From: a virus
Taxonomy: Duplodnaviria; Heunggongvirae; Uroviricota; Caudoviricetes
IMG/VR virus record: IMGVR_UViG_3300045988_153444
Direction: 5' to 3' (one strand)
Length of the DNA stretch: 32,473 bases
Shown: one piece after another, positions 29,757-30,331 of the stretch
Layout of the letters: each line of letters begins with the position of its first letter
Position numbering within the stretch: the stretch's first letter is position 1
Notes under the pieces: generated by a model
What the model was told of the DNA's origin: nothing
What the model saw: the letters and a program-made list of their open reading frames with translations, nothing else
Databases searched by the model: none
Position numbers and translations under genes: made by a program

Positions 29757-30044
29757 ATGGATAAAGATACTGTTTTAAAAATGTTGAATCCGGCTTGTTT
29801 AAAAAAAGCGGATGAATGGGAATCTCCTACATGTGGAGAAGTTCGGGCAGTCATTGGCCTCACCGGAATGAGTGGCTCGCAGTTGGCCAAAAAACTAGGC
29901 TTAAAAGATAGTCGCAATGTTCGCAACTGGCAGATGTTAAAGGAGTCCACATCCAGATCCAGCATTCCGTATGCAGCCTGGGCGCTGCTGTGTTACTTCG
30001 CTGGGTTAGGGTTAATCTTCATTGATAACAAAACAGATGTTTGA
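29757..30044 (+). CDS. Hypothetical protein with HTH-like segment and C-terminal hydrophobic helix (95 aa from ATG 29757)
   Basis: GGAG SD before ATG 29757; HTH-like LTGMSGSQLAKKLGLKDSRNVRNW; hydrophobic tail IPYAAWALLCYFAGLGLIFI. Confidence 0.5.
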   Translation: MDKDTVLKMLNPACLKKADEWESPTCGEVRAVIGLTGMSGSQLAKKLGLKDSRNVRNWQMLKESTSRSSIPYAAWALLCYFAGLGLIFIDNKTDV

Positions 30045-30067
30045 AACATGCAAATATGAGGTTTGTT

Positions 30068-30331
30068 ATGGAACTTGTACGCAAAACACGCAAAGAGTTC
30101 TTGGACCTGTATCGCATGGGAGCTTTCACTTGTGTTGTGGCTACCCAGGACGAAGTGACAAAAAGCTGGCGGCTTTTTGCTCTCAATAAAAAAGGGATTG
30201 CCGTTTTCATTGAAAAAGCCCGTGGTGGTATCCGCGAATGGGCGGGATTGAATTATGTGGCTGATTTTTGCGCAGCTATGGGGATTCGTCGCTGGGAAGT
30301 CCATATGCCAGGAGTAAAGTCACAAAAATAG
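30068..30331 (+). CDS. Hypothetical protein (87 aa from ATG 30068)
   Basis: GAGG SD 7 nt upstream of ATG 30068; overlaps the end of the previous gene; no family recognised. Confidence 0.5.
   Translation: MELVRKTRKEFLDLYRMGAFTCVVATQDEVTKSWRLFALNKKGIAVFIEKARGGIREWAGLNYVADFCAAMGIRRWEVHMPGVKSQK

Follow-up and report, generated by a model that had tools for sequence, protein, structure and literature searches.

A predicted KorC-type repressor operon with a passenger gene in Escherichia phage-plasmids

We analyzed a 32,473-nt stretch of viral DNA (Caudoviricetes; IMG/VR record IMGVR_UViG_3300045988_153444), hereafter called the window, and focused on two small neighbouring genes located between positions 29757 and 30331. 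Gene 1 (29757-30044, plus strand) encodes a 95-aa protein that its homology places in the KorC family of XRE-type helix-turn-helix (HTH) repressors. Gene 2 (30068-30331, plus strand) encodes an 87-aa basic protein (isoelectric point, pI, of 9.9) with a modelled alpha/beta fold, which belongs to the orphan Enterobacterales prophage family phrog_4595 and which we read as a passenger of the operon. A consensus scan placed a predicted sigma-70 promoter upstream of both genes (29702-29730, plus strand), with a -35 hexamer TTGCCA (29702-29707), a 17-nt spacer and a -10 hexamer TACCAT (29725-29730). Between the two hexamers lies a putative KorC-type operator, the perfect 17-bp palindrome TAGGAAA-AGA-TTTCCTA (TAGGAAAAGATTTCCTA; 29710-29726). 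As an earlier sequence-only reading of this DNA had proposed, the two genes sit between a replication origin and a toxin-antitoxin pair. They are flanked on the same strand by repA (28136-29113), which encodes an IncFII/LM-type initiator and is followed by a non-coding stretch with the presumed origin region (to ~29600), and by a higBA-like pair (30576-31222) in which a Gp49/HigB-like toxin (30576-30923) is followed by an XRE antitoxin (30923-31222).

The source of the window is a ~48-kb Escherichia phage-plasmid, a myovirus with an IncFII/LM-type repA. A 1.16-kb region of the window matches non-mobilizable E. coli plasmids of ~48 kb at 100% identity, with matches in 89 PLSDB records (at least 80% of the region covered in 56 of them), and it shares 99.6% identity with the isolated Yersinia myophages vB_YpM_41 and vB_YpM_44. 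The matching records carry terminase, portal, capsid, contractile-tail and tail-fibre genes as well as the IncFII/LM-type repA, ParA and a CI-like S24 repressor; this combination of phage structural genes with repA, ParA and a CI-like repressor therefore identifies the element as a phage-plasmid. Membership in the “pSLy3” phage-plasmid group was rejected, since pSLy3 belongs to the ~100-kb SSU5 supergroup. Our comparisons included vB_YpM_41 (L002), a diverged phage-plasmid of Salmonella Weltevreden (L094), Enterobacter relatives (L008-L011), a second, divergent phage-plasmid lineage (L019 and L041), a pOXA-48-type plasmid (L092) and the IncP-1 plasmid pA1 (L093). A literature search on vB_YpM_41 and on KorC in phage-plasmids turned up no paper.

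Genes 1 and 2 are real protein-coding genes under strong purifying selection. In comparison with a Citrobacter relative, dN/dS (the ratio of nonsynonymous to synonymous substitution rates) was 0.027 for gene 1 and 0.08 for gene 2, with dS saturated, and both are therefore truly protein-coding. The sequence-only reading had described two small same-strand genes with good ribosome-binding sites, and we confirmed both open reading frames (ORFs) and their Shine-Dalgarno sequences (GGAG at 29747-29750 for gene 1 and GAGG at 30058-30061 for gene 2, each 6 nt before the ATG). It had also reported that the genes overlap, which does not hold with the 87-aa start that it used itself: a spacer of 23 nt separates them in the window, and one of 42 nt in Citrobacter. 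A 4-nt overlap would be possible solely with an unsupported TTG start at 30041, and the N-termini of homologues back the ATG at 30068. Exactly these two coding sequences are called, both as “hypothetical protein”, in every RefSeq and GenBank record inspected.

KorC of IncP-1 plasmids (RK2/RP4 and pA1) is a global repressor of the klcA, kleA and kleC promoters. Gene 1 shares 53% amino acid identity with the pA1 protein over 80 aa (BLASTP, E 3e-24), that is, across the whole of a protein of ~85-95 aa, and the identity takes in the C-terminal motif IPYAAWA(L/I)LC..AGLG. Identity to the KorC of pOXA-48 is 34%. Using tblastn, we found relatives of gene 1 in 3928 plasmid records; matches on IncP and other plasmids are annotated korC/KorC, and the best ones beyond this phage-plasmid family are annotated korC on IncP-1 plasmids, the annotated IncP KorC references being the pA1 and pS163-2.1 proteins. 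A 52%-identical homologue (P0027) occupies the korC slot of klcA-klcB-korC in IncP-1-like contigs. Curated hidden Markov model libraries returned weak matches only. The homology of gene 1 to KorC, a regulator of plasmid backbones, is of the very kind that the sequence-only reading had named as evidence against its own proposal.

The modelled structure of gene 1 points in the same direction. Its only significant sequence relatives in the PDB are the C-terminal HTH domain of AcrIF24 (E 1.4e-5) and Aca3 (0.016), and the AlphaFold2 (AF2) model (predicted local distance difference test, pLDDT, 84.8; predicted template modelling score, pTM, 0.78) is compact, with helices arranged as in an XRE domain. 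The best PDB folds found by Foldseek were the AcrIF24 HTH domain (83 aligned columns) and then Aca1 on palindromic DNA, followed by further matches to HipB and to the controller (C-) proteins of restriction-modification systems. The HTH-like segment that had been noticed in the first protein is thus confirmed, and the sequence and fold comparisons together indicate that gene 1 encodes a KorC-family repressor with a single XRE-type HTH domain.

The hydrophobic helix that had also been noticed in gene 1 corresponds to a real C-terminal hydrophobic stretch, a 19-aa segment at about residues 70-89 with a mean Kyte-Doolittle score of 1.77, and its interpretation as a membrane anchor is unsupported. 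The segment is conserved across the KorC family, where it scores 1.04-1.57 in other KorC proteins and includes D, E or K, and it aligns with the final helix of the HTH domain in the solved, soluble AcrIF24 structure. In the AF2 model it forms a 10-residue helix (72-81) packed within a confident globular domain and followed by a Gly-rich break (Gly83/Gly85). A tail anchor would be an uninterrupted hydrophobic helix of ~20 residues outside the globular domain that is kept in homologues, and the model of gene 1 shows no such helix. Because the tail is conserved in the KorC family, aligns with a soluble HTH helix, is modelled as short and is charged in homologues, gene 1 is probably not membrane-anchored.

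We found the putative operator when the sequences ahead of korC-like genes from diverged relatives were compared with promoters of IncP-1 plasmids and pOXA-48. What they share is a palindrome of 17 bp, TAGGnnA-N3-TnnCCTA, that separates the -35 from the -10 hexamer. In pA1 it takes the form TAGGGCATTTTGCCCTA in the kleA promoter and TAGGACATTTTGCCCTA in the klcA promoter, and in pOXA-48 the operator TAGGACAAAATGTCCTA lies in the orf24-korC promoter exactly where a KorC site has been reported (PMC12365149). The layout of hexamers and operator in the promoter of gene 1 is kept in Citrobacter, Enterobacter and Salmonella relatives. The window contains one match to the degenerate pattern TAGGNNANNNTNNCCTA, against 0.04 expected. 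Across 98 loci, the strict pattern was found solely in the 20 that encode a KorC-family protein, and in none of the prophage loci that carry gene 2 alone; it misses the variant operators of L019 and L041. Two other candidate operators were rejected, namely the imperfect repeats TTTCCTAT...CATAGAAA (29650-29669) and TTTCTAT-N6-ATAGGAAA (29696-29716), since the element conserved in relatives is the palindrome at 29710-29726.

Operators of this type recur elsewhere on the element. When up to two mismatches were allowed, the window contained three sites against 0.10 expected, the extra two being at 28-44 and 31315-31331, both TGGGAAAAAATTTCCTA. Each lies within a repeated promoter and leader cassette of ~100 bp on the plus strand, the copies of which are nearly identical; there are two in the window besides the gene 1 promoter and three in full-length relatives. 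In copy 1 (1-98) the operator sits between TTTGCA and TATGAT (20-48), and in copy 2 (31288-31383) between TTTACA and TATGTT. Copy 1 is predicted to drive an 89-aa ORF of phrog_6143 (99-368, plus strand). This short unit ends at a strong terminator (587-610), which argues against copy 1 as the promoter of the late structural operon. The first gene 3′ of copy 2 encodes a 355-aa DUF3560 protein (31384-32451, plus strand; PF12083, E 3.7e-31), a putative member of the same regulon, the orthologues of which in L002 and L094 also have an operator upstream.

The full-length relatives retain this arrangement. In phage vB_YpM_41, four sites have no more than one mismatch and stand ~70 nt ahead of a start codon, and a further one with two mismatches brings the total to five (0.23 expected). 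In the diverged phage-plasmid of Salmonella Weltevreden, all four syntenic positions hold a perfect site, one each before the korC-like gene, an ORF of 126 aa, the DUF3560 gene and an ORF of ~90 aa. Two operator sites occur in a 6-kb Citrobacter locus. In the distant lineage of L041, the repressor is 33% identical to gene 1, and both its own promoter and the cassette that follows higA carry an altered half-site, TAGGTCA...(T/A)GACCTA; a diverged repressor accompanied by the same altered half-site at two promoters indicates that operator and repressor change together. The features by which a KorC-family repressor can be recognized, namely full-length homology, a single XRE-type HTH domain, a 17-bp operator between the -35 and -10 hexamers and several operators per element, are all found here. 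The KorC-like repressor encoded by gene 1 very probably shuts off its own promoter and the two other near-identical promoters, as judged from these sequence comparisons.

The cassettes have some further properties. In vB_YpM_41 the copies lie at 27268-27365, 37157-37253 and 44070-44167, and every copy combines a KorC-type operator with the same leader, ending in AACCGGAGA; this leader end is recognizable even in the very divergent L041. Folding of the conserved leader was not unusually stable (z -1.75). The start of the window coincides with a cassette copy, and near its other end the order is higA, cassette, DUF3560 gene (31223-31400). This junction occurs in one piece in no PLSDB record, with matches stopping at about 31271. 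In relatives, the 126-aa ORF follows higA, and the DUF3560 gene is found ~10 kb further on, past the ParA and CI-like repressor genes. Either cassette copies recombined here or the assembly was mis-joined at the repeat.

Gene 2 was correctly described by the sequence-only reading as uncharacterised: we found no match for it in Pfam, NCBIfam or PADLOC, and none in PDB sequence and profile searches. It belongs solely to phrog_4595. The same reading had seen no recognisable motif in the protein, which is true in the sense that no curated library matches it; within the family, nonetheless, the motif ARGGxREWSGLxxLAxFCxxxGIxxWEVH is strongly conserved. When 1.84 billion representatives were searched exhaustively with a profile, 26 proteins were returned, of which at least three look spurious, being long multi-repeat matches (P0039 and P0049 were inspected; P0045 was listed only). 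In a set of 5.8 billion sequences, a profile search returned 183 clusters, and all those with a named source are “hypothetical” or “bacteriophage protein” entries from Enterobacterales. The family is uniformly basic (pI 9.0-10.1). The AF2 model (pLDDT 72) shows a small alpha/beta fold with generic fold matches only, and a structure search of BFVD returned uncharacterised phage proteins only. Our best guess is that its product acts early or during establishment, through binding to a nucleic acid or to a protein of the host.

The distribution of gene 2 is independent of that of the repressor gene. In comparison with the Salmonella Weltevreden element, gene 2 is an exact indel of ~310 bp, with window positions 30045-30354 corresponding to 16 nt there. 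It is also absent from the Enterobacter relatives L008-L011, in which repA and the korC-like gene are followed by hicAB, and a korC-like gene without gene 2 is present in Salmonella, Enterobacter and Klebsiella relatives. Conversely, no korC-like gene is detectable among the ORFs of 71 of the 80 viral loci that have a gene 2 homologue. In these KorC-less settings, gene 2 is found in the nin regions of lambdoid phages (O/P ... gene 2 - dinI - DUF1367 - ninG - Q) or beside tail-fibre genes. Each gene thus occurs without the other in relatives, a lack of conservation as a pair that the sequence-only reading had listed as evidence against its own proposal. Because the indel is precise, relatives lack gene 2 and gene 2 usually occurs without KorC, we read it as an independently mobile accessory gene, a passenger that appears to have been placed under KorC control rather than a partner of the repressor; some residual chance remains of a functional coupling with the KorC-like repressor.

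Homologues of gene 2 are very common in Salmonella, with 758 blocks in the index. In the Salmonella lambdoid prophages L095-L098 (5001-5267), the homologue is always found in the nin region, with a variable gene on its upstream side and a dinI-like gene on the other. The upstream gene encodes a dATP/dGTP pyrophosphohydrolase in three of the four.

Gene 2 resembles the nin and moron genes of lambdoid phages. In lambdoid prophages of Salmonella and Klebsiella, homologues with 45-55% identity occupy the interval from the replication genes to the Q antiterminator, adjoining dinI, DUF1367 and ninG, and others stand beside tail-fibre genes in another type of prophage. It differs from them in that the copy in the window is on a plasmid-type repressor promoter and not on a phage early transcript.

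The KorC systems of plasmids offer the closest parallels to gene 1 and its promoter. As in IncP-1 plasmids, the 17-bp palindrome TAGGnnA-N3-TnnCCTA lies between the -35 and -10 hexamers and there are several operators per replicon. However, the host here is a phage-plasmid with an IncFII/LM-type replicon rather than a conjugative IncP plasmid, the operator arms are TAGGAAA instead of TAGGGCA, and the regulated genes are unrelated, with no klcA or kle genes present. Gene 1 is also predicted to head its own autoregulated operon, whereas korC of IncP-1 comes last in klcA-klcB-korC. The KorC of the IncU plasmid RA3 regulates globally through several operators, and its gene forms a bicistronic operon with kfrC (korC-kfrC; PMC7414963). 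In the IncL plasmid pOXA-48, korC is essential for plasmid maintenance, and the orf24-korC operon promoter has a single KorC site between -35 and -10 (PMC12365149); pOXA-48 KorC is apparently autoregulated within this operon. Both of these korC operons contain a passenger gene, as here, yet the passengers are unrelated (kfrC in RA3, the JAB/RadC-like orf24 in pOXA-48 and the 87-aa orphan here), and identity to pOXA-48 KorC is low, as given above. The companions of KorC vary by replicon: orf24 on the pOXA-48-type plasmid (L092; 1959-2719), klcA-klcB in IncP-1 (pA1, L093; 631-3228) and kfrC in RA3. In pA1, a klcB-korC segment is duplicated.

We propose that a KorC-like dimer would bind TAGGAAA-N3-TTTCCTA in its own promoter, and that this negative feedback would fix a low steady-state level of the bicistronic mRNA of genes 1 and 2. 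The same repressor would close the near-identical ~100-bp cassette promoters elsewhere on the element, which are predicted to drive small accessory units: the 89-aa ORF, the DUF3560 operon and, in relatives, the 126-aa ORF together with an HTH gene. Upon entry into a repressor-free cell by infection or transfer, all of these promoters could fire briefly and then shut as the repressor builds up. This burst followed by shut-off is proposed by analogy with the kil-kor regulons of IncP-1 and IncU plasmids and with acr-aca (anti-CRISPR and anti-CRISPR-associated) operons. Taken as a whole, we consider it likely that the locus is an autoregulated korC-like operon with a passenger gene and that it belongs to a regulon of several promoters.

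Several observations weigh against this reading. The pair of korC-like gene and gene 2 recurs in L019 and L041, where it adjoins repA and lies upstream of a HigB module, and the gene 2 copies of the two phage-plasmid lineages are 53-58% identical to each other as opposed to 47-54% identical to prophage copies. The elements also encode a CI-like S24 repressor, which leaves the role of a second repressor puzzling. Both cassette operators in the window have one mismatch in the left arm (TGGGAAA), and the promoters are consensus predictions (9/12 matches). DNA binding and repression by the gene 1 protein are inferred from sequence alone, and we likewise infer the burst dynamics and any function of gene 2.

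A bolder form of the proposal is that phage-plasmids have recruited KorC as a second, non-CI master switch, gating entry-burst genes through a ~100-bp cassette that spreads by copy and paste, and that gene 2, the 89-aa ORF, the 126-aa ORF and the DUF3560 gene encode new anti-defence or host-takeover effectors. We regard this as unlikely. If true, KorC and Aca would form one functional class, the repressors of establishment genes common to plasmids and phages.

The most attractive alternative for gene 2, speculative as it is, is that the locus is an anti-defence operon of the acr-aca type, in which gene 1 would act as an Aca-like repressor and gene 2 would encode a new effector, directed against host defence (anti-CRISPR or anti-restriction) or serving host takeover, that is expressed in a burst upon entry and then throttled. 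The AcrIF24 HTH domain and Aca3 are the sole solved sequence relatives of gene 1, with Aca1 as the next-best fold, and the logic would be shared as well: a small HTH dimer acting on an inverted repeat in its own operon promoter would damp a co-transcribed small accessory gene. IncP-1 KorC itself controls klcA, an antirestriction gene of the ArdB type, and gene 2 behaves like a moron or early gene, being small, fast-moving and found in nin regions and at tail-fibre spots. However, the repressor gene comes first here, the reverse of the typical acr-aca order, and the sequence similarity of gene 1 to Aca proteins is far below its similarity to KorC. Anti-defence proteins of the DNA-mimic class are acidic, whereas gene 2 is uniformly basic across its family. 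The family is confined to Enterobacterales prophages with no tie to a particular defence system, and no known anti-CRISPR was identified at the locus, nor did any homology to a known inhibitor turn up, no Acr library having been searched. The basic charge, the reversed order and the lack of homology keep the acr-aca operon a speculative and rather improbable explanation.

It is much less likely that the two genes form a regulatory pair, with gene 2 as an anti-repressor or co-repressor of the KorC-like protein. Their adjacency and predicted co-transcription in two divergent phage-plasmid lineages (that of the window and that of L019/L041) would fit such a pair, but gene 2 is mostly found in prophage loci with neither a KorC-like gene nor a KorC-type operator in the 5-8 kb examined, the KorC-like gene and its four operators are fully kept in elements without gene 2, and we saw no sign that the two proteins co-vary.

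A type II toxin-antitoxin or abortive-infection pair, with gene 1 as HTH antitoxin and gene 2 as small toxin, is very improbable. The HTH gene does come first and the small protein second, the promoter is predicted to be autoregulated and a genuine toxin-antitoxin module adjoins the locus. Type II pairs show constant co-occurrence and a recognizable toxin family, however, neither of which applies to these genes: gene 2 has no cognate HTH neighbour in the same 71 loci noted above, where its upstream genes are variable, gene 1 stands alone in relatives, neither PADLOC nor toxin families were matched, and the family of gene 1 consists of stand-alone transcriptional repressors.

The sequence-only reading itself, a membrane-anchored DNA-binding protein that acts with gene 2 in partition or exclusion, is the least probable of all: the C-terminal segment of gene 1 does exceed the usual Kyte-Doolittle threshold of 1.6 and the locus does adjoin a replicon, but the same segment is conserved and less hydrophobic in soluble KorC repressors and is modelled as a short HTH-domain helix, and the adjacent ParA and centromere-like repeats that accompany partition adaptors of the ParB/ParG type are missing, since the promoter palindromes are the only repeats and ParA lies several kb on in relatives, past the toxin-antitoxin pair. 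No evidence points to the partition, exclusion or abortive-infection style of function that had been suggested.

With gene 1 as a predicted KorC and the operators as its putative targets, the autoregulated operon and its regulon give a testable regulatory map of four promoters and one repressor for the widespread ~48-kb phage-plasmids of Escherichia, Salmonella and Citrobacter. On this reading, the kil-kor logic known from conjugative plasmids would also operate in a phage, and KorC would be linked to the Aca regulators of anti-CRISPR operons. It also yields a short list of small, putatively repressor-gated ORFs, gene 2 included, as candidates for establishment or anti-defence functions. The regulator is of an ordinary kind in a setting where it was previously unannotated, and no new kind of system is revealed; the parts worth following are the conserved four-promoter KorC regulon and the link between KorC and Aca.

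We also made some observations on the surroundings of the two genes. An Rfam search of the window returned no match. A 38-nt block located 3′ of repA (29385-29422) recurs with 94.7% identity in L019, a phage-plasmid that is highly divergent elsewhere, and can be recognized in L041 too; it is probably a core origin element. Just 5′ of the toxin-antitoxin promoter, a block of ~42 nt (30481-30523) is ~83% conserved in L011 and L041, where it precedes other toxin-antitoxin modules (hicAB and another higBA). On either side of the higBA promoter itself (30514-30566; TTGAAA-17-TATAGT) stands a copy of the palindromic motif TATAAC(C/T)(C/A)ACAGGTTATA, presumably an operator for the toxin-antitoxin complex. 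Far from this region, two neighbouring genes upstream of the terminase genes (1973-3969) each encode a ParB N-terminal (Srx-like) domain, which in the second is fused to a methyltransferase domain.

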